Assembly: GCA_003645845.1 (NCBI GenBank)
Contig: QNCV01000001.1
Coordinates: 1 to 28,975, forward strand
Source: Fidelibacterota bacterium
Lineage (GTDB): Bacteria > Fidelibacterota > UBA2242
Direction: 5' to 3'
Length of the DNA: 28,975 nucleotides
Positions 13,388 to 23,791 of the stretch are shown here, one piece after another. The first letter of the stretch is position 1. The number at the start of each line of letters is the position of its first letter. The notes under the pieces are model-generated. The model saw nothing but the letters and a program-made list of their open reading frames with translations. It did not search any database and was not told the origin of the DNA. The translations under genes were made by a program, and so were the position numbers.

Positions 13388-14533
13388 GTGACTATGATCA
13401 AAAGCAAAGTCGTTGAAGAATTGATTCATTTTACTCAGAATGAGTATCCGGTAACCAGCGCTTATTTTACCCTGTCCAGTAAAGTCGGCAATCACAAAAC
13501 CAGTCTGGTTGAACTCAAAAAAATGATTCGTTACAAGAAGAATACGACCTATTTCAGGCAACTGAATGAAGTCGAGAAAAAATCGGTTTTAGCCGACTTC
13601 GAAAAAATTCTTAACTGGTTTGAAGAGGAACTGGATAGCTCAAAATATGTCAGCTCCATTTGCTTTTGTCAAAGCGGAACCGGTTTCTGGAAGGTTCGTA
13701 ATCTGCGGATTCCACTTCAGAATGAAATAATCATTCAGCCCAAACCCTCGATTTACCAACTGTCACAATTGTTCAGTCAATACAGTCGTTATGCGGTAGT
13801 TCTGGTGGATAAAAGCAAAGCCCGCATTTTTGAGCAGTCGCTGGGTGATTTTACCGAAATCTATGCCGTAGAGGACAATGCACCCGAGACTGTCAAAGTC
13901 GGGGGTTATCGTGGACGCCAGGAGCGTCGGGTCGAACGGAATATTAAAAAAGGGGTGGCGGAACATTACAAGGAGGTTGCCAATAAGATATTTGCTCTTA
14001 ATAAACGCCGGGATTTTAATTGGATTGTCCTGGGCGGCCGCCGGGAATCCGTCGGAAAGTTTCAAGGTATCCTGCATGATTACGTGGCTTCCAAAATTGC
14101 AGGAACGGTTGAAATTGAACCTCAGGCTCCCCTGAGCGAGGTCTTCAGTAAGGTTCAAAAGGCCGGTCTGAAGGCTCGCCGGAAGTATGAGACGGGACTG
14201 TTGGAAACTTTTAACAATAAAAAAACTGCCAACCAGGCCGTAGCCGGAATAGATGCGGTTTTACCGATGCTGCGGGATAATTGGGTGGATACTCTTTTAT
14301 TACAGGAGAATTACCGCCGTAAAGGGGTCTTTTGCCGGCATTGTCAGTATATCGATCTGTCGACGCACGCCGAGTGTCCAAAGCATGGCGGACCGCTTGA
14401 ACGAACCCATAATATAATCGAACATATGCTGCATAACGCCTTACTTCAGGGGGTTGATGTTCAATATCTGCAGCAATCGCTGGAGCAATACGGATATCTG
14501 GGCGCAATATTGCGCTTTCCTCTGACCTCCTGA
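13388..14533 (+). CDS. Bacterial archaeo-eukaryotic release factor (eRF1/aRF1-like, baeRF) family protein
   Basis: YAVVLVDKSKARIF, GG loop (VGGYRGRQERR), IVLGG, C-terminal eRF1 domain-3-like VDTLLL...CRHC...CPKHG...LGAILRF. GAGGAG ribosome-binding site. Confidence 0.85.
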   Translation: MTMIKSKVVEELIHFTQNEYPVTSAYFTLSSKVGNHKTSLVELKKMIRYKKNTTYFRQLNEVEKKSVLADFEKILNWFEEELDSSKYVSSICFCQSGTGFWKVRNLRIPLQNEIIIQPKPSIYQLSQLFSQYSRYAVVLVDKSKARIFEQSLGDFTEIYAVEDNAPETVKVGGYRGRQERRVERNIKKGVAEHYKEVANKIFALNKRRDFNWIVLGGRRESVGKFQGILHDYVASKIAGTVEIEPQAPLSEVFSKVQKAGLKARRKYETGLLETFNNKKTANQAVAGIDAVLPMLRDNWVDTLLLQENYRRKGVFCRHCQYIDLSTHAECPKHGGPLERTHNIIEHMLHNALLQGVDVQYLQQSLEQYGYLGAILRFPLTS

Positions 14534-14753: not shown

Positions 14754-15725
14754 ATGAAAGTCAAAATTCTTTTTGTAGCCTTTCTTCTATTTCCTCTGAT
14801 ACAGGGGTGTAGTCTCTTCAGCAGCGAGGCTGTTGACGAGACGGAAACCGAGACGCTTCAAACTGCTCAGTCGACGGACACAGTGGTAGCGCCAGCTACC
14901 GGCCAGGTGGTAACCAACAGTACACTAACGCCAACCCGGCAATCCCGCTCGGTGGCAACTGCCCCTGCCCGGACGACTCCTGCTGATCAGGATTATGTGG
15001 TCAACGAGCTGACCTTTGAAGTGAAAAAATTGTCTGCCGAGCTGAAACATGTGCAAAGTCAGCTGCAAGACCTGCAGGCCAACAGCCAGATGTGGATGAA
15101 TCCACTGGCCATGTATGACAAGGAAATCGTGACCGATAACGGTACATCAATCTACGGTAAAATTATCTACCAGGATGATAAAATTGTCAAAGTAGAGACC
15201 CTGATCGGTTATCTGGTGCTGGATAAATCATCAATTGTCCGGGTAATTACCAATGTTCCCGAAGAGCCGGCTCAGAAATATGTGCCTCAGGAACTGGTGA
15301 GTGAGGTCTCGCGAGGCACCAGCTATCCTCAGGTTCCCCAACCGGCCTATATCTCCAAATCCGGTGAACCGGCGCAGCTGCCGGAAAGTGCTGCCAAACT
15401 GCCCAATTGTGTACTGGTCGGCAATATCAGTGAGAAAAAAGATCGTTCCGGGAACACCATCTTTTCCGGTGAGGTTAAGAATATCGGTGCCCGGCGTGCG
15501 GATTTTGTGAAGGTTAATTTTATTTTTCGGAAAAACTGGAGCGGCGACACAAAAACCCGGACCGCTTTCGTGGAAGGTACCTATTTTACTTTCGAAGATT
15601 CCGGAATTACGACGAACAATTCACTGTTGCCGGGTGCGACCGGTAAATTTGAGCTGATCATTCCCAAGAATTTTGGCAGCTTCATCGGCTATTCCTACAC
15701 AATTGAGTGGGAGCAGTATAAATAA
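14754..15725 (+). CDS. Lipoprotein: Thr-rich linker, coiled coil, small beta domain, C-terminal FxLYD-like Ig domain
   Basis: Lipobox IQGC (Cys19). Coiled coil NELTFEVKKLSAELKHVQSQLQDLQ. C-terminal GEVKNIG...VKVNF...LLPGATGKFEL resembles FxLYD domains. The stop overlaps the next start (TAATG). Confidence 0.7.
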   Translation: MKVKILFVAFLLFPLIQGCSLFSSEAVDETETETLQTAQSTDTVVAPATGQVVTNSTLTPTRQSRSVATAPARTTPADQDYVVNELTFEVKKLSAELKHVQSQLQDLQANSQMWMNPLAMYDKEIVTDNGTSIYGKIIYQDDKIVKVETLIGYLVLDKSSIVRVITNVPEEPAQKYVPQELVSEVSRGTSYPQVPQPAYISKSGEPAQLPESAAKLPNCVLVGNISEKKDRSGNTIFSGEVKNIGARRADFVKVNFIFRKNWSGDTKTRTAFVEGTYFTFEDSGITTNNSLLPGATGKFELIIPKNFGSFIGYSYTIEWEQYK

Positions 15726-16528
15726 TGCATTTACCATTCACTAAGATTGCCGGTTTGTCGTTTTTACTAATGGGATTCGCTTTTTCTCAAACCGACTCGA
15801 CTTTGATTGATATTTCTGAAAAAAAAGCGAAGCTGAACGAGAAGAATGTTCAGATGCTGGAATTGCAGTCCGATATCAGCAGTCATGACGAAGAGCTTCG
15901 GGCTATTCGGGATGAAATTGAAAAACTGAAAGCCTATAATCGGCGACTTCAGGATTCTTTGCTAACCAAACAGGCGGAGATTGATTCGCTGAAAGAGCAG
16001 CAGAACCAGGTGGAAAATTTTAAGATGATCGTCAATGCGTTTGACGAAGACAAAGCCCTGACCGATGAAATCCTGGAGTCAATTAAAAGCTCTGATGTGG
16101 CGCCGAAGGATACGGTGGCGACCGTTACTCTGGAGGAAACTCCGGATGATACGGAGTACCGGACACTATACAACGAAGCGCTTAATCTATATTTTGATCG
16201 GGATTATAAGTCCAGTATTGGCAAATTCAGAGAACTATTAACCCGCAGTCGGAAACATCCCCTGGCAGATAACTGCCAGTACTGGTTGGGTGAAAACTAT
16301 TATTCTCAGGAAAATTATTCCCAGGCAATTGCGGAATTTCAGAAAGTTGCTCCCCTGGGTGACGGTAATAAGGCGGATGCCGCTCTGTTTAAAATCGGGA
16401 TGAGCCAGCTGAAGATGGGACAGGACGCCTCCGCCCGGGAAACCTTTACCCGGCTGGAAAAACAGTTTCCCGACAGCGATTTGCTGGATAAAGCCCGGCA
16501 ATATTTAACGTCCCGGGAAAAGTTTTGA
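15725..16528 (+). CDS. CpoB/YbgF-like periplasmic coiled-coil plus TPR protein
   Basis: Signal peptide and long coiled coil, then YNEALNLYFDRDY, LADNCQYWLGENYYSQENYSQAIAEFQKV and KADAALFKIG, which are typical YbgF TPRs. Confidence 0.82.
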   Translation: MHLPFTKIAGLSFLLMGFAFSQTDSTLIDISEKKAKLNEKNVQMLELQSDISSHDEELRAIRDEIEKLKAYNRRLQDSLLTKQAEIDSLKEQQNQVENFKMIVNAFDEDKALTDEILESIKSSDVAPKDTVATVTLEETPDDTEYRTLYNEALNLYFDRDYKSSIGKFRELLTRSRKHPLADNCQYWLGENYYSQENYSQAIAEFQKVAPLGDGNKADAALFKIGMSQLKMGQDASARETFTRLEKQFPDSDLLDKARQYLTSREKF

Positions 16529-17277
16529 AAGGATATGTTTGTAAGGTAATTTTAATGCTTTGTCTGCCCCTAATCTTAGACGCTCAGGAAAGCGATACGA
16601 CGCGGGGTAAAACCGACAAAAGTTTCATGTACGATTTAGGAATCAAGATTGAGCCAGCGAGGGAGTCTGCCCCCCTTCAAGGCATTGGCGTTGCTAACCC
16701 AAGTTTGGTTCGACTACAGAGCCAAATGGACTCCCTCACCTCGGCTTTTTCAATGTATAAGCAGGATACCGACCGGCGTATTACAGAACTGGATCAAGCG
16801 CTTGATTCTGTGAAGCTGGTAAACAGGCAACTTGAAAAGCGGATTTATTTATCACCCTATGCATCGGCGGGAAATCCTCGTTTAATTTATTCAAAAAAAG
16901 AAGGAGAGCGCTTTTTTCAAAAGGGCACGGATGCCTATAACGCTCAAAATTATCCGGTTGCGGTGGATTATTTCCGGAAATGTATTGATAGTGAGGCCGG
17001 CGGTAGCCTGATCGGGGATGCCTATTTCTGGGTTGGTAACAGTTATATTCATCTCAAAGACGAATATCTGGCGCTGGAATATCTCAAACGGGTACCGGAA
17101 TATCCGCTATGTAAGAATATTGACGATGCACTTTTTCTGACGGCGGTTACCTACCGGAAACTGGGTGATGCAGAGATGGCCAGATTTTTTTTAGAGAGGC
17201 TGCTCAGGCGTTTTCCCGATGGGGAGATGGCCAAACTGGCTCTATTGGAGTTAAAGCGACTGAAGTCTATGGATTGA
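16525..17277 (+). CDS. Second CpoB/YbgF-like coiled-coil plus TPR protein
   Basis: TTG start overlaps the previous TGA. Signal peptide and coiled coil, then DAYFWVGNSY and DDALFLTAVTYRKLGD...LLRRFPDG. Confidence 0.75.
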   Translation: MKGYVCKVILMLCLPLILDAQESDTTRGKTDKSFMYDLGIKIEPARESAPLQGIGVANPSLVRLQSQMDSLTSAFSMYKQDTDRRITELDQALDSVKLVNRQLEKRIYLSPYASAGNPRLIYSKKEGERFFQKGTDAYNAQNYPVAVDYFRKCIDSEAGGSLIGDAYFWVGNSYIHLKDEYLALEYLKRVPEYPLCKNIDDALFLTAVTYRKLGDAEMARFFLERLLRRFPDGEMAKLALLELKRLKSMD

Positions 17278-17299: not shown

Positions 17300-18640
17300 A
17301 TGATAAAACGTACTTATATTCTGTTACTAATCATTCTGATACTGACGGTTTCGGCGTTGGGGCAGATAACGCGGGTCGCTTTTACCAAACCAGGATATAT
17401 GATGAAAATCCCGACCAGCAGTATCTATCGGACCCCCTATATTTTCCGCACCGGGATCAGCACCGATATTTACGGATTTGCCGATACCCTGATTACGCGG
17501 GGCGTCTTTTTCGAAACCGATCTGTCCAACACGTTTAAGATTGGCGTTACGTCGATTCAGGGGTTGGGAACGAGTCCTCCGGTGGAATTTGGCCTCCATT
17601 TTCAAAAACGGCTATTCGTCTATGGCGATATCAGTTTCTCGGCCGGCATTCATGATCTCGTGTTGAAGCAGGGAGATAAAGAACTGAACATTGATACCAG
17701 GACCCTGTCGATTTTTGGGGTCATCAGTAATGAAAAACAATTTGAAAACAGCAGCATGTCTACCTATATGGGCTTTGGTACCGGTGGTTTGGCAACCGGG
17801 TTCGGGAGTGACTCGGCGACCAGTGCCGGCGTGTTTGCGGGGATTTTGCTGCATACCAATATCATGGCCGAGCGCGGCGGTGTCGAATTCATCGGTGAAT
17901 TTGATGGTGGCGGAATTAACGCTGGTGTGCGGATTCCCTTTACCAAGGACTACAATCTCTCACTGGGTGTCAATAATCTGGTTAAACTGTATAATTTCGG
18001 CGCGGAGGATTTTGACCTGACTAATGTCAGTGATTATCCCAGTCTGAATATCGGCCTTGACTTTCGGATTCCACGGGTCAAGCCCGAAAGCGCCCGGAGG
18101 CGCCGGCTGGAAGGCATGGTGGACGATGAATCCCAGATGGTTCTGGATATGGAAGAACAGTTTGCGATGAAGTTGGATTCGACTCTGAAAGCTGCGGATT
18201 TTGAAATTGCCAAACTGAAAGATTCTTTGCGGGTCTTTGAGTCTGAGATCAAATATCTGACCAGTGAAGTTGCTCAGCTGCGCCAGAAAACCGCAGTTTT
18301 GGAGGATTCGGTTCGTTCGGCAAAACTGGCCAGACACGCCATGGAGCAGAACATCAACCTGGCGCTTAAGCATCTCTCCCGTTCACTACGCTATTTCTAC
18401 GCCGGTGATTACCGGGAAGCGCTGCAGGAAGTCGAAGCGGCGATTGATCTGAATCCGAATCTGGCTCTGGCCTATGCCCGCCGGGGTTCGATCTATTATA
18501 AACTGGGCGATATTGACCGGGCCACCATCAACTGGAACCTGGCCCTGCGGATAGATCCCGAGTACGATGATGTTCGCAATATTTTGAGAGCCCTTAACGA
18601 AAACCGTCTCAGAAGCACAGGGTCGACTCGAAAGGAATAA
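17300..18640 (+). CDS. Outer-membrane beta-barrel (YjbH-like) fused to a coiled coil and C-terminal TPRs
   Basis: Signal peptide. Residues ~45-257 are Gly/aromatic alternating beta strands including EFDGGGINAGVRIPF. Residues ~265-352 are heptad-rich. Residues 353-425 are canonical TPRs (NPNLALAYARRGSIYYKLGD). Confidence 0.7.
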   Translation: MIKRTYILLLIILILTVSALGQITRVAFTKPGYMMKIPTSSIYRTPYIFRTGISTDIYGFADTLITRGVFFETDLSNTFKIGVTSIQGLGTSPPVEFGLHFQKRLFVYGDISFSAGIHDLVLKQGDKELNIDTRTLSIFGVISNEKQFENSSMSTYMGFGTGGLATGFGSDSATSAGVFAGILLHTNIMAERGGVEFIGEFDGGGINAGVRIPFTKDYNLSLGVNNLVKLYNFGAEDFDLTNVSDYPSLNIGLDFRIPRVKPESARRRRLEGMVDDESQMVLDMEEQFAMKLDSTLKAADFEIAKLKDSLRVFESEIKYLTSEVAQLRQKTAVLEDSVRSAKLARHAMEQNINLALKHLSRSLRYFYAGDYREALQEVEAAIDLNPNLALAYARRGSIYYKLGDIDRATINWNLALRIDPEYDDVRNILRALNENRLRSTGSTRKE

Positions 18641-18650
18641 GGATTAGTTT

Positions 18651-19439
18651 ATGGATATTGCAAGTTTATTAGGTATTTTAGCCGGCATTGGTTTAATTGT
18701 TCTGGGAATTTACCAGCTCACTCCCAACTTTATGATTTTTGTCAGTATGGCCAGCTTGCTGATCGTGGCCGGCGGTTCCTTTGCGGCCACTCTGCTGAGT
18801 TTTTCACTCAGCGATGTGTTTGGCCTGCTGCGCTCCGCCTTTGCGGTCTTTAAAAAACAGAAGATCGATCTGCCGGCGGAGGTGGACGCCATCGTGGAGC
18901 TGGCGCCGATTGCCCGCAAGAGCATGCAGGAGCTGGAAAAATCATTGGTCAATGTCAGGAACTACTTCCTTCGGGACGGTTTACAGATGGTGGTGGATGG
19001 CTATAACCCGGATGAAATCCGGGAAATCCTGGAAACCCGAATCGAAAACCGGATCCTTCGTGAAAAAAGCGAGGCCAATGTGCTGCGGACCATGGGCAAA
19101 TATTCCCCGGCTTTCGGAATGATCGGAACCCTGATCGGTCTGGTGGTGATGCTTTATGGGATGGCGGACATGGCCGGTGGCGGTGAAGACCCCATGGCCG
19201 TGCTGGGCGCCGGAATGGGCGCGGCGCTGATCACGACCTTTTACGGCACGATCCTGGCAAATATGTTTTTTAATCCCATGGCCGAAAAATTTGAAACCCG
19301 GATCAAAAAACAGACAACGATGCAACAGATGCTGATTGAGGGAACGTTGCTTATTCATGCACGTAAGCATCCTCTGATTGTCCGGGAAAAATTGAATTCC
19401 TATCTGAGGCCGCGGGATTGGAAGAAACCTGAGGAATAG
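18651..19439 (+). CDS. motA: Flagellar-type stator A subunit (MotA/PomA)
   Basis: MDIASLLG start, LLIVAGGSFAATL, ARK...LE, FLRDGLQMVVDG, SPAFGMIGTLIGLV, ALITTFYG, NMFFNPMAEK, PLIVREKLNSYL. Confidence 0.93.
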   Translation: MDIASLLGILAGIGLIVLGIYQLTPNFMIFVSMASLLIVAGGSFAATLLSFSLSDVFGLLRSAFAVFKKQKIDLPAEVDAIVELAPIARKSMQELEKSLVNVRNYFLRDGLQMVVDGYNPDEIREILETRIENRILREKSEANVLRTMGKYSPAFGMIGTLIGLVVMLYGMADMAGGGEDPMAVLGAGMGAALITTFYGTILANMFFNPMAEKFETRIKKQTTMQQMLIEGTLLIHARKHPLIVREKLNSYLRPRDWKKPEE

Positions 19440-19446
19440 AGCGTAA

Positions 19447-20133
19447 ATGACTGAAAAGGCGGCTCGTAAAAAGAAAAATTTATATGCTGAAGAGGGCGGC
19501 AAAGAGGCCGAACCGTGGCTGTTGACCTACGGTGATATGATGACGCTTCTGATGACCTTCTTCGTGCTGCTGTTTTCCATGAGCACCATAGATCCGGTGA
19601 AGCTGGAACAGTTCAGTGATTCCATGGGGCAGGCTCTGGGAAAGAAAACCAAGGCCAAAAAATATTCCCTGGCGGAAATCTACAAGGATGTCGTTAAGGT
19701 TATCGAGGAAGAATCTCTTCAGGATCAGATTCAGGTGGAGACCAGTGAAAGGGGTGTCGCCATTAAAATTCCCAGCGAGATTTCCTTTGGTGTCGGTAGC
19801 GCCGATTTAGATCCCCGCATTTATCCGATTTTAAATAAGTTTGTCGATATGATGCAAAAATCAACCTACCCGATTGCCATTGAGGGGCATACCGATAATG
19901 TTCCCATGCGTTCAGCCGTGTTTCCGTCGAACTGGGAGCTTTCGGCGGCCCGGGCCGCCCAGGTGGTGCGTTATTACATCAATCAGGGAATTTCATCGGA
20001 ACGGTTTCAGGCCATTGGGTATGCGGATACCCGGCCCCGGGCCCGCGGGGCTACTATTGCGGAAGCCAACGCAACTTCGGCGCAGAGAGACATGAACCGC
20101 CGGGTTGAAATTTTCTTTCTGACAATTCAATAA
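19447..20133 (+). CDS. motB: Flagellar-type stator B subunit (MotB/PomB) with OmpA-like peptidoglycan-binding domain
   Basis: WLLTYGDMMTLLMTFFVLLFSMS (ion-binding Asp30), plug helix, IEGHTD, NWELSAARA, NRRVEI. Confidence 0.93.
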   Translation: MTEKAARKKKNLYAEEGGKEAEPWLLTYGDMMTLLMTFFVLLFSMSTIDPVKLEQFSDSMGQALGKKTKAKKYSLAEIYKDVVKVIEEESLQDQIQVETSERGVAIKIPSEISFGVGSADLDPRIYPILNKFVDMMQKSTYPIAIEGHTDNVPMRSAVFPSNWELSAARAAQVVRYYINQGISSERFQAIGYADTRPRARGATIAEANATSAQRDMNRRVEIFFLTIQ

Positions 20134-20149
20134 ATTTAGGAGACATGCA

Positions 20150-21622
20150 ATGCTCAAGAGTCGGAAATATATGAATACAATAGCGGCGCTCTGTATCATC
20201 CTGCTGATGATCTCCCAACAGGCGCTGTCTCAGGAAAATCAGATGTCCTATCTCTCCCAGAAACTGATGCTGGAAAACAGCATTCGTGAGCGGGTGGCGG
20301 ATGCTCTGGATAAACTTCTTGATGATATAAAGTTTGTAGTGGATGTCGCTGTGGAACTGGAGTTTAAGGTGCCGGAGAGAACCGTTACCGAAACCCAGCC
20401 CCTTACTCGGCAGGAAACTCCGACCACTCCAGCGAAGGCGGCTTCAAATGTATTGACGGCGCAGGAATCAACAACAAAACCTGCATCAAAACAGGGCAGT
20501 GCTGATCTGGGATTACCATTGCCGGGATTTGAAACTCCTGAGGATGTAGTCCGAACCGAAGAGAAAACCACACCGGTTCTGAAAGAGGGTCCGCCGACTG
20601 AATCCGAGACATCGGAAACGTCGACAACTACCGTAACTCCGGCTCAGCAACCAGCCGGAATTGTTAGCAAGACGGTTCAGGCAGGCAGGGCTGTACCGGT
20701 TGTCAAACGGCAACAGGTCAACATCATTATGGAAGACGGTGTTACGCCTGAAATTATTGAAAATGTTCGTCAGGTTGCAGCAATTGCGTCCCACTATGAC
20801 CGCACCCGGGGGGATGTGATCAGTGTAATGACTGCATCATTTAAAAAACGGGAAAAACAGGATGGCGCCGAAGCCGTTATTTTAAAGAATATTGCTGAGA
20901 AAATTGATGATCTGGAACGTCGTCAACAGCGTGCCGAACAGGAAGCCCGGATTGAAGCCCAGAAGCGGATTGAGCGTCAGGCCGTGGTGCGGGATTCACT
21001 GCGAATTCAGGAATTACGGAAGCAGATTGCCGATTTACAGAACCAGCTTCAGGCTCCCATGTTACCTGATGACCAGAGGGCTCGGACCGAAGCCATGGCC
21101 AGTGCACGGGAAACCGAATTGGCGAATCTCAAAGAGCAGCTGCGGGAAAGTAACCGGCGGCTCCAGGAACTTGAGATGGGCGCTATGGAGACGATTCCGC
21201 CGCGCTTTATTCGCTCTGATAATCTGGCGCTATACATCATTTTAGGTCTTTTTGTCATTGCTCTGTTGATATTGCTGATCCTTTTACTGGTGAATCGAAG
21301 AAATCATCAAAAACGTCAGGAACTGGAATGGGGCTATGGCACGAAAGTCCCGATGGGCCCCAGACCGCAGCCGGCAGCCCGGCCGCAACCCCAGACACCG
21401 CCGACCGCACCGCCACCTGTTCAACCCGAAGCTCCGGCTGCACCACAAGCACCGTCGGTACAGGCACCATCGGTTGATCCTGCCGCCCTGAAGGAAGAGA
21501 TGAAAAGCATTAAACAATCGGTCATTTCCATGAGTGTTGGTCAGCCCGATACGGCCTCGCGGGTAATTAACGAATGGCTGGGACAGACGAAAAAAACCGA
21601 AGAGTCCGAATCGGAATTCTAA
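20150..21622 (+). CDS. FliF-like (M-ring C-terminal/RBM3-like) protein with signal peptide, periplasmic coiled coil, single TM and cytoplasmic FliG-binding tail
   Basis: LENSIRERVADAL..FVVDVAVELEF and KRQQVNII...IENVRQVAAIASHYDRTRGDVISV resemble the split RBM3 of FliF. The C-terminal QPDTASRVINEWL resembles the FliF tail. It lies directly upstream of fliG. Confidence 0.72.
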   Translation: MLKSRKYMNTIAALCIILLMISQQALSQENQMSYLSQKLMLENSIRERVADALDKLLDDIKFVVDVAVELEFKVPERTVTETQPLTRQETPTTPAKAASNVLTAQESTTKPASKQGSADLGLPLPGFETPEDVVRTEEKTTPVLKEGPPTESETSETSTTTVTPAQQPAGIVSKTVQAGRAVPVVKRQQVNIIMEDGVTPEIIENVRQVAAIASHYDRTRGDVISVMTASFKKREKQDGAEAVILKNIAEKIDDLERRQQRAEQEARIEAQKRIERQAVVRDSLRIQELRKQIADLQNQLQAPMLPDDQRARTEAMASARETELANLKEQLRESNRRLQELEMGAMETIPPRFIRSDNLALYIILGLFVIALLILLILLLVNRRNHQKRQELEWGYGTKVPMGPRPQPAARPQPQTPPTAPPPVQPEAPAAPQAPSVQAPSVDPAALKEEMKSIKQSVISMSVGQPDTASRVINEWLGQTKKTEESESEF

Positions 21623-21635
21623 GAAGGAGTGTAAT

Positions 21636-22568
21636 ATGGTAGATTTTAAAAACCTCGACGGTTTAGATAAAGTGGCCATCCTGTTTAAAACCCTGGGTAA
21701 CAACCTGGCCCTGCAACTATTTAAGGGTATGACAAAAGACCAGATTCGCAAAGTCCGGGAACGAATGAGCAGCATTAATAATATACCCTTTACAGTGAAA
21801 AAGGAGATTCTGGAGGAATTTTATTTCGGCTTTGTTTCGGAAAAATTTTCTCCACCTACCGAAGAGACAAAAAAGCCCTTTGAATTTTTACTTAATATGA
21901 CCGATGAGCAGGTCGTTTATCTGATTGCTACGGAGACACCGCGCATTATGGCTCTGGCCATTGCTCAGCTGCCGGTGGATCGACAGGTGAATGTGCTTCA
22001 GGCTCTTGACCCCACCATTCAGCCCAAAGTGATGACCGAAATCGGTCATCTGGGTGATATCCCTCTGGAGGGGGTGGTCAGCATTGCCAATGAATTGAAA
22101 GAAAAATCCGCTTTTATCCCCAGGGCGTCGGAATTCAACCGGGGTGGCGGAGAAAATCTGGCCGGGATTCTCAGCCAAATGCGTCCCAGGGATGAAAAAC
22201 GTTTTCTGGAACATCTGGAAAAAGAGGCTCCGGATGTGGTTCAGGAAGTTAAACGTCACTATTTCAGTTTTGAGGATTTGCCTAAACTGCCACATGATAT
22301 CCTGGCGGATGTGCTGAAATCCGTAGAAGCTTCTGAGGTGGCCTACGCTCTCAAGGGACAGCCTGAAGAAATGAAAGAGTTGTTTATCAATTCGCTGCCC
22401 CAGCGAACCCAGATTATTCTGGAAGATGAAATGGAATTGCTGGAGGGTCCCCAGCCCCGCCGCAAAGTCGAAGCCGCCCAGAAGGCGATTGTGGACAAAG
22501 CCCGGGAACTGGAGAAAGAGGGTCGTTTTCGGCTGGAAGATTTTATGGAAGCCGATTTTATCGAGTAA
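21636..22568 (+). CDS. fliG: Rotor/switch protein FliG homolog (310 aa)
   Basis: GLDKVAILFKTLG (FliG-N), PFEFL, ETPRIMALAI (FliG-M), GGENLAGIL, FSFEDL, ALKG...PQR...EDE...GP...VEAAQKAI (FliG-C). Confidence 0.92.
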   Translation: MVDFKNLDGLDKVAILFKTLGNNLALQLFKGMTKDQIRKVRERMSSINNIPFTVKKEILEEFYFGFVSEKFSPPTEETKKPFEFLLNMTDEQVVYLIATETPRIMALAIAQLPVDRQVNVLQALDPTIQPKVMTEIGHLGDIPLEGVVSIANELKEKSAFIPRASEFNRGGGENLAGILSQMRPRDEKRFLEHLEKEAPDVVQEVKRHYFSFEDLPKLPHDILADVLKSVEASEVAYALKGQPEEMKELFINSLPQRTQIILEDEMELLEGPQPRRKVEAAQKAIVDKARELEKEGRFRLEDFMEADFIE

Positions 22569-22624: not shown

Positions 22625-22657
22625 ACTGCACAAATCAAAATAGTGAAAGAGATACAA

Positions 22658-23791
22658 ATGCATCGGTTGATTTGCTTCGGACAGTGGGCAATTATCCTGA
22701 TAATCTTGTCCTTTGGATTACATGCCCAGACCGCTGAAATTCAGGAAGCCCGGTTGCAGGAGGCCCTGAAGGCCATGAACCGAATGGAGCATGAAAAGGC
22801 GGTGGCCCTTTTTCAGGAAGTTGCCCTGAATCAGCCGTATCATCCACTGGGCTCTTTTGGTGCGCTGGCAAACCGGTGGATTGTGAATCAGGGTAAATAC
22901 GGCTATCGCGCCGGAAACAGGGAACTTTTGGAAGATGTCGATGCCGTAATTATCGATTTCCGGCGTCGTTTGGTCGCAAATCCGGACGATGCGGAGCTTA
23001 AATATTACATCGGATTGTGCAACGGTTTGCGCGCCCGGGTGCTGTTGGCCGAGAAAGACTGGATTGGTGTTCTGGTCAGTGGTTACCGGATTATCCGCAA
23101 TTTTAAATCCGTATTGAGAGACAATTCCAAGGATCCCGACATTGTGATTGCCTTCGGCGTGTTCAATTATTATGTCGGTTTGTCGTCGGGATTTATGAAA
23201 ATCGCCTCTTGGATCATGCATCTCTCGGGCTCCAAAGAAGAGGGCTTGCAGCAAATTGAATTTGCAGCTCTTAAGGGAAATTACTGCCGTTACGAAGCCC
23301 GCAGCATTCTGGCTTATCTGAATCTTTATTTTGAATCCGATTACCCTGCCGCAAAACGCTGGCTGGATATGCTGATTGCCGAATTTCCCGAAAATCCCTA
23401 TTACAACTTTCTTTATGCAGAGTATAATGTCCGTACCGGTAATCCGGATATCGACATTTACCTCCGACTGATCCGTCAGCGTCTCGACAGTCTCGATCCC
23501 TTTTTTCGGCAAGAGTATGTGCAGCGCCTGCGGCTTCTGGAGGGCAGCCAGGCTCTGCTGCAGCATGATCTGGATAAGGCAGAGGGAAAACTGCTGAGTT
23601 TTTTGGAGCATTTTGATTCAGAAATGGATTATGATCTGGCCAGCGCCTATCTGCGCTTGGGTCAGCTCTACGATCTTCGCCACGAGCGTCAAAAAGCCCG
23701 GGAGTACTATCAGAAAACCGTGAATCTTGATAATCGCAGCGCTGCGGTGCTGGAAGCAAAAAAATATCTGGATACACCGTATTTGCAGTAA
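22658..23791 (+). CDS. Exported TPR-containing helical protein of unknown function
   Basis: ATG at 22658 is preferred over GTG at 22643. Signal peptide ending LHA-Q. C-terminal TPR AYLRLGQLYDLRHERQKAREYYQKTV. Confidence 0.75.
   Translation: MHRLICFGQWAIILIILSFGLHAQTAEIQEARLQEALKAMNRMEHEKAVALFQEVALNQPYHPLGSFGALANRWIVNQGKYGYRAGNRELLEDVDAVIIDFRRRLVANPDDAELKYYIGLCNGLRARVLLAEKDWIGVLVSGYRIIRNFKSVLRDNSKDPDIVIAFGVFNYYVGLSSGFMKIASWIMHLSGSKEEGLQQIEFAALKGNYCRYEARSILAYLNLYFESDYPAAKRWLDMLIAEFPENPYYNFLYAEYNVRTGNPDIDIYLRLIRQRLDSLDPFFRQEYVQRLRLLEGSQALLQHDLDKAEGKLLSFLEHFDSEMDYDLASAYLRLGQLYDLRHERQKAREYYQKTVNLDNRSAAVLEAKKYLDTPYLQ

Follow-up and report, generated by a model that had tools for sequence, protein, structure and literature searches.

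A FliG-like protein of Marinimicrobia, encoded with its own stator and a cut-down FliF, probably belongs to an envelope machine other than the flagellum

What is a FliG-like gene doing in a bacterial operon without genes for flagellar export, rod, hook or filament? FliG is commonly taken as a marker of flagella, and few uncultured bacterial phyla are as abundant in the dark ocean as the Marinimicrobia. We analyzed a 28,975-nucleotide stretch of a Fidelibacterota (Marinimicrobia) genome bin (contig QNCV01000001.1 of assembly GCA_003645845.1; hereafter the window), in which the open reading frame at 21636–22568 encodes a FliG-like rotor protein of 310 amino acids (all coordinates are on the forward strand). 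An earlier note, made from the letters of the window, had suggested that this protein could be the rotor of a flagellum that lacks the FliM/FliN switch. On balance, our results favor a different view: the reading frame appears to encode a non-flagellar member of the FliG superfamily, the cytoplasmic rotor-like part of a self-contained, vertically inherited Marinimicrobia operon. Because this conserved operon brings its own stator and a cut-down FliF and occurs mostly in genomes without flagellar genes, it is probably an undescribed ion-driven envelope machine and not a switch-less flagellum.

By its domains and fold the protein is recognizably a FliG. All three Pfam domains passed their cut-offs (FliG_N, E = 2.6e-16; FliG_M, 2.3e-11; FliG_C, 4.9e-30), the FliG_N match spanning profile positions 1–65 of 104 only, and phmmer against the PDB aligned amino acids 80–298 to Thermotoga maritima FliG (1LKV, E = 4e-25). 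The AlphaFold2 model (predicted local distance difference test score, 79.4) has a FliG fold, for which Foldseek returned Salmonella FliG (8UMX_B, E = 9e-12). Each domain also superposes on a solved counterpart: stator-bound FliG_C for the C-domain (8UCS_H; template-modeling score TMt 0.91, root-mean-square deviation 1.3 Å), 4FQ0_C for the M-domain (0.90) and FliF-bound FliG_N for the N-domain (5TDY_D), the last over 65 columns only. A Gly-Gly(-Gly) linker (G170-G171-G172, 22143–22151) joins FliG-M to FliG-C and aligns to the ‘GG’ of T. maritima FliG, with G170 and G171 each present in 112 of 114 orthologs, and the MFxF hinge of canonical FliG reads YFSF. The three-domain fold, the Gly-Gly linker and the FxF hinge are thus shared with canonical flagellar FliG (E. 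coli/Salmonella and T. maritima; 8UMX, 1LKV, 3HJL). The models built for flagellar FliG were less accommodating: the protein scored 143.5 bits against the FliG equivalog TIGR00207 (cut-off 226.7) and 40.5 against NF004260 (cut-off 550). In agreement with the earlier note, which had ascribed the 310-residue length to a deletion between FliG-N and FliG-M, a MAFFT alignment placed a gap of ~26 residues between T75 and E76; the missing counterpart is GGLDYAQKVLESAWGHKRAEDIIKRV of the bin’s canonical FliG, and amino acids 72–75 at this junction form a low-confidence loop in the AlphaFold2 model.

In canonical FliG, the EHPQ...R surface binds FliM. We located the corresponding columns by aligning the protein in MAFFT to E. 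coli FliG (from NC_000913.3), and counted residues at each position in 114 full-length orthologs. Both the phmmer alignment to 1LKV and the MAFFT alignments put ETPR (amino acids 100–103, 21933–21944) at EHPQ (E. coli E125/H126/P127/Q128), and Glu135 (22038–22040) at the conserved Arg (R160 in E. coli, the Arg of ‘lkRia’ in T. maritima), a reversal of charge that had been read correctly from the sequence. Equally, among the stator-facing charges K240, R257, E263-D264-E265 and R275-R276 of the torque helix (22353–22463), K240, R257, D264 and E265 align to E. coli K264, R281, D288 and D289. The spacings are identical in the window and E. coli proteins (17 and 7 residues for the torque charges, 35 between E100 and E135), while the R297 equivalent is shifted by 1–2 residues, P274 occupying the E. 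coli R297 column with R275/R276 next to it. These matches are not due to chance, because the positions fall inside a highly significant homologous alignment.

The loss of the canonical FliM-binding surface extends to the whole family: position 101 is D, T, S, E or P and in no ortholog H, position 103 is R, P, V or K and never Q, and position 135 is E in 110 of the 114 and never R, so that none has kept the EHPQ...R residues H101, Q103 or R135. Position 100 is E throughout (114/114), and position 102 is P in 87. The near-invariance of E100 and E135 indicates that the former FliM face was rebuilt and conserved, not relaxed. On the stator side, K240 (113/114), E263 (111/114) and R276 (113/114) hardly vary, position 257 is either R (58) or K (56), and the next sites are split between D (58) and P (53) at position 264 and between E (57) and a gap (54) at position 265. 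There are two forms of the torque helix in the family, ‘ILEDEMxLLEGPQPRR’ in the window clade (22425–22445 in the window) and ‘AM[YF]EP----[VI]EG’, with a four-residue deletion, in open-ocean clades; the canonical acidic pair, D264/E265, is retained only in the clade that contains the window, and the Arg and Glu of the partner MotA are the same in both forms.

The gene is under strong purifying selection. The ratio of nonsynonymous to synonymous substitution rates (dN/dS) was 0.03–0.04 against same-genus orthologs, at saturated dS (1.4–2), in keeping with the earlier argument that this is not a decaying remnant. Within the window clade, dN was lower in the torque-helix region (0.014–0.056) than in the former FliM face (0.07–0.20). 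The idea that selection kept the torque face and let the FliM face go therefore survives in part: the lower dN at the stator face speaks for it, but E100 and E135 are near-invariant and D264/E265 persist in only about half of the family.

An exhaustive profile search returned the paralog family at >230 bits, followed by canonical FliGs and by proteins of 580–712 amino acids. Canonical FliGs match the profile in two stretches, broken at the N-M segment that is absent from the paralogs; the 580–712-residue proteins match it in one C-terminal stretch, and are FliF-like::FliG-like fusions composed of a signal/transmembrane segment, an N-terminal half resembling ring-building motif 3 (RBM3; E = 1e-6 with a hidden Markov model (HMM) of the FliF-like protein), a transmembrane segment and the FliG-like part. 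In a quick, unrooted maximum-likelihood tree (78 sequences), the canonical FliGs, 34 in all and including those of E. coli and of the bin, lay on one side of a branch of length 1.05 (Shimodaira-Hasegawa-like approximate likelihood ratio test (SH-aLRT), 100); the fusions grouped together (96), and the Marinimicrobia proteins joined them on the non-canonical side. The two sides differ at the FliM face. Canonical FliGs have E125, Q128 and R/K160 in 34/34 each; the 41 paralogs and fusions share E125 (41/41), and carry R/K at 128 in 32 and never Q, and E at 160 in 32 and never R/K, with E160 in 21 of 25 fusion proteins. Judging from these alignments, ExP[R/K]...E as against EHPQ...R is a usable diagnostic signature of the non-flagellar FliG lineage.

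To follow the gene through the phylum, we scanned 251 genomes with a profile of 22 orthologs (A2), taking E <= 1e-75 as a strong match. The profile matched 192 genomes, strongly in ~166, the weaker matches being canonical FliGs; overall, the 310–311-residue protein has hundreds of relatives of 40–100% identity, nearly all in Marinimicrobia bins. The scan for flagellar genes covered FliM and FlhA (flagellin was not scanned phylum-wide), which occurred in 58 and 60 genomes, respectively, essentially one set. By hand tally, 38 genomes have the paralog and FliM, 128 the paralog without FliM, 20 FliM only and 65 neither; carriage of the paralog is thus 66% with FliM and 66% without it, although related genomes are not independent. 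Most of the ~128 FliM-negative carriers show one FliG-type match, and families without FlhA retain the FliG-like gene (29/30 genomes in family f20, 14/15 in f16, 11/11 in f9). FliM itself is patchy within genera. Occasional copies of the FliG-like gene are broken, as in G147 (C599:5158–5511, a fragment interrupted by a TGA and a TAA), or reduced to a remnant, as in G022 (C16:43121–43309, 63 residues), a 99%-complete flagellated genome; they imply that the module can be lost.

The bin of the window (G000; 2.8 Mb, 423 contigs, 89.8% complete) also contains canonical flagellar genes. Contig C139 carries fliF (535 amino acids), fliG (343 amino acids, ‘NEHPQTAA...AYRLAT’, with EHPQ...R intact), fliH and fliI, contig C11 carries fliM and flhA and begins with a motB of its own, a second flagellar-type motA stands at the contig end on C217, and two flagellins are elsewhere in the bin, as are a third MotA (C210) and a third MotB (C33). 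The search for fliM that the earlier note had proposed thus gave no FliM match in 128 of the ~166 carriers, and found fliM in the bin of the window. The flagellar contigs (C11, C139, C188 and C299) have a GC content of 0.38–0.42, as compared to 0.484 for the window contig C1 and 0.444 +/- 0.026 for the bin, and their tetranucleotide distances are unremarkable. FliM, FlhA and canonical FliG were found in 0/6 same-genus genomes. Because of this and the lower GC, the flagellar contigs may come from a co-binned relative, the bin mixing two related populations. The window gene differs from flagellar FliG whether or not those contigs are native.

Together, these results set the protein apart from canonical FliG: it fails the flagellar FliG tests (equivalog score, EHPQR, FliM co-occurrence and clade), with ExP[R/K]..E in place of EHPQ..R, ~26 FliG-N residues gone, a position outside the fliF-G-H-I operon and the canonical clade, and an occurrence independent of FliM/FlhA, and it keeps the FliG fold and, in the window clade, the stator-facing charges. 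One further likeness to canonical FliG is that its gene lies directly 3' of a FliF-type gene with a FliG-binding tail motif.

This FliF-like protein (490 amino acids, 20150–21622) is encoded 13 nucleotides upstream of the FliG-like gene, and the two are separate genes in 20/20 Marinimicrobia loci. Its sole Pfam match is PF08345 (YscJ_FliF_C, E = 5.6e-7), and its parts run in the order signal/transmembrane segment, RBM3 (S-ring) interrupted by a disordered insert rich in T/P/E, coiled-coil hairpin in the periplasm, transmembrane segment and putative FliG-binding tail. In the AlphaFold2 model these appear as strands at 62–82 and 173–229, disorder at 83–171, helices at 238–347, the transmembrane segment at 356–393 and two tail helices at 444–476, and the Foldseek matches to FliF (8Z5V_A, E = 3e-6; 6SD1_A) are confined to its S-ring/RBM3-collar region. 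In flagella, RBM1 and RBM2 surround the export gate; neither was found in the FliF-like protein, and PF01514 matched only the canonical FliF on C139. The tail of the window protein, ‘...ASRVINEWL’, resembles ‘AAKLIRSWI’ of the bin’s canonical FliF, and a corresponding motif, A-[TS]-[RK]-I-[VI]-x-[ED]-W-[LM], is found in the orthologs with W476 invariant. Many of the open-ocean FliF-like proteins terminate in a run of 4–10 lysines that is preceded by an acidic/Pro-rich stretch (e.g. ...DGDKKKKKKKK; L021:10262–11803, L023:10201–11742, L028:10347–11936); the window protein ends in ...TKKTEESESEF and not in a lysine run.

Across 19.5 kb around the gene in 20 genomes from many Marinimicrobia families, the order lipoprotein, (CpoB-like), large TPR (tetratricopeptide repeat) protein, MotA, MotB, FliF-like, FliG-like was kept in 20/20 loci, with the FliG-like gene as the last core gene of a co-directional operon; neither fliM nor fliN was found in the window. 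The stator genes are of flagellar type. The MotA/PomA-type A subunit (262 amino acids, 18651–19439; PF01618, E = 4e-29) has flagellar MotA (8UCS_C/6YSF_E, 163 bits) and PomA (137 bits) as its best solved relatives, and all 21 cluster MotAs retain the Arg and Glu at the positions of E. coli MotA R90 and E98. The MotB-type B subunit (228 amino acids, 19447–20133; MotB_plug, E = 1.3e-21; OmpA, E = 9e-20) has a plug, the channel residue Asp30 and an OmpA-like peptidoglycan-binding domain, reads ‘TYGDMMTLL’ in translation, and matches the MotD/MotS/MotB NCBIfam models, all under their equivalog cut-offs.

Further upstream lies a set of putative envelope proteins. The lead gene (14754–15725) encodes a predicted lipoprotein of 323 amino acids without a Pfam family, is the first cluster gene in 20/20 loci (42–58% identity), and has only unnamed Fidelibacterota clusters as look-alikes in the Atlas. 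Two CpoB/YbgF-like genes follow, one or two of which occur in most of the 20 loci: the first (15725–16528) encodes a coiled-coil and TPR protein (TPR_6; TIGR02795, tol_pal_ybgF, 81.3 bits, below the cut-off of 90.1) and the second (16525–17277) a TPR protein (TPR_6, TPR_2; TIGR02795, 46.8 bits). Directly 5' of motA stands the gene for the large TPR protein (446 amino acids, 17300–18640), which has C-terminal TPRs and an ortholog in 20/20 loci (39–53% identity), and for which the Atlas offers YaiO-type outer-membrane barrel-TPR proteins (0.88), as a lead only. Downstream of the FliG-like gene, a TPR protein of 382 amino acids (22643–23791; weak TPR matches) has an ortholog in only one of the 20 loci, from a same-order genome (L026), and its membership in the module is uncertain. 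Flanking genes could be matched in 4/20 loci and were all housekeeping genes: ispG with an lpxL-like gene in one locus, and a baeRF gene in three. The latter, a bacterial eRF1-like gene (baeRF family 10), sits just upstream of the operon in the window (13388–14533) and likewise in L018, L026 and L031. In L018 (17130–19355) and L031 (17163–19388), from genomes G029 and G011 in which FliM/FlhA were not found, one MotA-like and two MotB-like genes lie ~7 kb downstream of the cassette; this second MotA-like gene has 31% identity to the window MotA.

The fusion proteins occur in a comparable setting. In Saccharospirillaceae/Pseudomonadales metagenome-assembled genomes (MAGs), the order is fixed as unknown protein, TPR lipoprotein, fusion, MotA, MotB (two fusions were seen beside MotAB), and the TPR lipoproteins match the large TPR protein of Marinimicrobia over its C-terminal TPR part (HMM E = 2e-19 and 1e-16). 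By HMM comparison, the unknown proteins (352–377 amino acids) of these gammaproteobacterial cassettes were linked neither to the lead lipoprotein nor to the large TPR protein’s N-terminal half. A high-GC fusion, P0132 (667 amino acids), is followed by a TPR protein at L038:3196–6229, and MotAB is absent within that 12.6 kb contig. Like the window operon, the fusion cassettes lie on the non-canonical side of the tree, show the E..[R/K]..E signature, have a short N-M junction and a FliF part reduced to the RBM3 region, and combine adjacent flagellar-type MotAB with a homologous TPR domain. Unlike them, the window operon has separate FliF-like and FliG-like genes, MotAB 5' and not 3' of the rotor genes, extra CpoB-like and lipoprotein genes, a long periplasmic coiled coil in the FliF-like protein, and a K264 equivalent that is conserved in the Marinimicrobia paralogs and not in the fusions. 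These natural fusions argue that the FliF-like and FliG-like proteins are a physical pair. In the literature on FliG paralogs and non-flagellar homologs, on Marinimicrobia FliG and on FliF-FliG fusions, we found no description of the module or of the fusion cassette.

How might such an operon work? We propose that the FliF-like protein would form an inner-membrane ring through its RBM3/S-ring domain, and that its conserved C-terminal tail (...ASRVINEWL) would hold the shortened FliG-N domain. The C-domain of the FliG-like protein could then offer its conserved charges to the cytoplasmic loop of a dedicated MotA5B2-type stator, ion flow through MotAB would turn or push the FliG/FliF ring, and this movement would reach the CpoB-like/TPR proteins and the outer-envelope lipoprotein through the coiled coil that the FliF-like protein has in the periplasm. 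Such a module would need no FliM/FliN, the former FliM surface having become a conserved acidic/basic patch (E100, R/K103, E135), a signature shared with the fusions of other phyla; R103 and E135 might form a salt bridge. Ring formation, rotation, its direction and the cellular role of the module are here predicted from the parts. More tentatively, and with appreciably less confidence than we have in a non-flagellar FliG as such, the operon could encode a flagellum-independent rotary motor, near-core in Marinimicrobia, in which a FliF S-ring and a FliG ring are driven by their own MotAB and coupled by the coiled coil to TPR/CpoB-like proteins and a lipoprotein, as the unfused counterpart of a cassette that is found across many phyla.

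Several points weigh against the reading of the operon as such a machine. The only FliG rings lacking FliM/FliN that we know of are those of engineered FliF-FliG fusions (PDB 8Z4D/8Z4G). Among public RNA runs, none was listed for 18651–22568. The FliG-N domain is shortened to ~65 aligned residues, and only the tail motif predicts its binding to FliF. Nor is the canonical electrostatic interface universal in the clade, because the D264/E265 equivalents have given way to Pro and a four-residue deletion in about half of the family and K264 is unconserved in the fusion clade. The absence calls for flagellar genes were made on MAGs that are 57–100% complete. Finally, the phylum’s only cultured member, Fidelibacter multiformis, is described as non-motile (PMC11652737); it was not among the best 80 of 211 loci listed.

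Three other explanations keep the gene tied to the flagellum, past or present. The one from which we started, the rotor of a unidirectional flagellum without FliM/FliN that is uncoupled from chemotaxis, draws on the lost EHPQ..R, the kept torque charges and a window free of fliM/fliN. We regard it as highly improbable: the operon has none of the genes that export or build a flagellum, other contigs of the bin encode FliM, FlhA, FliF, flagellins and a canonical FliG in which EHPQ..R is intact, the ~128 carriers without FliM are nearly the same genomes as those without FlhA (flagellin not being part of the phylum scan), the partner FliF-like protein is devoid of RBM1/RBM2, and the gene falls outside the canonical FliG clade. 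Spirochetes have second FliG paralogs, such as FliG1 of Borrelia, in flagellated cells, and the FliG-like protein might likewise be an accessory FliG that joins or modifies a true flagellar motor under some conditions. Here too a second FliG-family gene can stand beside that of the motor FliG, 38 of the 58 FliM-positive genomes carry both genes, and the FliG_C domain is structurally very close to stator-bound FliG_C; but carriage is equal in genomes without FliM, the gene never lies inside flagellar clusters and is always accompanied by a dedicated MotAB and FliF-like partner, and the flagellar contig has its own motB. Unlike the Marinimicrobia gene, which occurs mostly without flagellar genes, spirochete FliG1 is not known to be encoded with a MotAB and FliF-like partner of its own, and an accessory role for the window protein seems very unlikely. 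That the operon is the decaying remnant of a lost flagellar operon might be suspected from the frequent loss of flagella in the phylum (58 FliM-positive genomes in 251, patchy within genera) and from the broken copies in G147 and G022. This is scarcely credible in the face of the low dN/dS, a length fixed at 310–311 residues with an intact frame in ~166 genomes, 6–8 genes in synteny in 20/20 loci and the new invariant residues E100 and E135.

The main competitor to our reading dispenses with rotation. It would make the operon a force transducer like Tol-Pal/TonB, or an envelope tether, in which MotAB pulls a static FliF/FliG scaffold linked to the CpoB-like proteins, for example in outer-membrane or cell-wall maintenance. 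Two CpoB/YbgF-like genes in the operon, an acidic pair in the torque helix that is not conserved family-wide and the unusual peptidoglycan biology of the phylum (PMC11652737) would all suit it. TolB_N was not found in the bin, which would also suit it but says little, because the model had no match in a Bacteroides control genome either. We consider this explanation rather unlikely, as the operon has the parts of a rotary interface: an RBM3 domain of the kind that forms S-rings, a FliG ring protein, and a MotA of flagellar type whose R/E contacts are conserved. A kinship with Zorya, a MotAB-based anti-phage defense, is suggested by the match of the cluster MotB to ZorB models (E = 2e-23), and would be exceedingly unlikely: PADLOC gave no ZorA, ZorC or ZorD and left MotA and the FliF-like and FliG-like proteins without a match, MotB scores higher on the flagellar MotD/MotS/MotB models, the flanks that could be matched hold housekeeping genes, and the gene is near-universal in many families, unlike defense islands. 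Non-flagellar ion-driven motors of the MotAB family are familiar from GldLM/PorLM (gliding and the type IX secretion system), ExbBD-TonB, TolQR-TolA, AglRQS and ZorAB. The window operon resembles these in having a 5:2-type stator and a dedicated envelope-spanning partner, and departs from them in that its stator is of flagellar MotA/PomA type and its partner a FliG-fold protein; to our knowledge, none of them uses a FliG/FliF-type rotor.

The reading that we favor, a non-flagellar FliG in an ion-driven envelope machine, has consequences for how these genomes are interpreted. Genes of this family are labeled ‘flagellar motor switch protein FliG’ in Joint Genome Institute (JGI) records, and this label would mislead motility predictions for SAR406/Marinimicrobia. 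The module would offer a natural experiment in a FliG ring without FliM/FliN and in dispensable torque-helix residues, and bears on the relation of the flagellar rotor-stator core to simpler envelope motors. If the more tentative reading, a flagellum-independent rotary motor, is true, the operon would represent a new class of ion-driven envelope machine made from flagellar motor parts, or one possibly resembling a pre-flagellar rotor.

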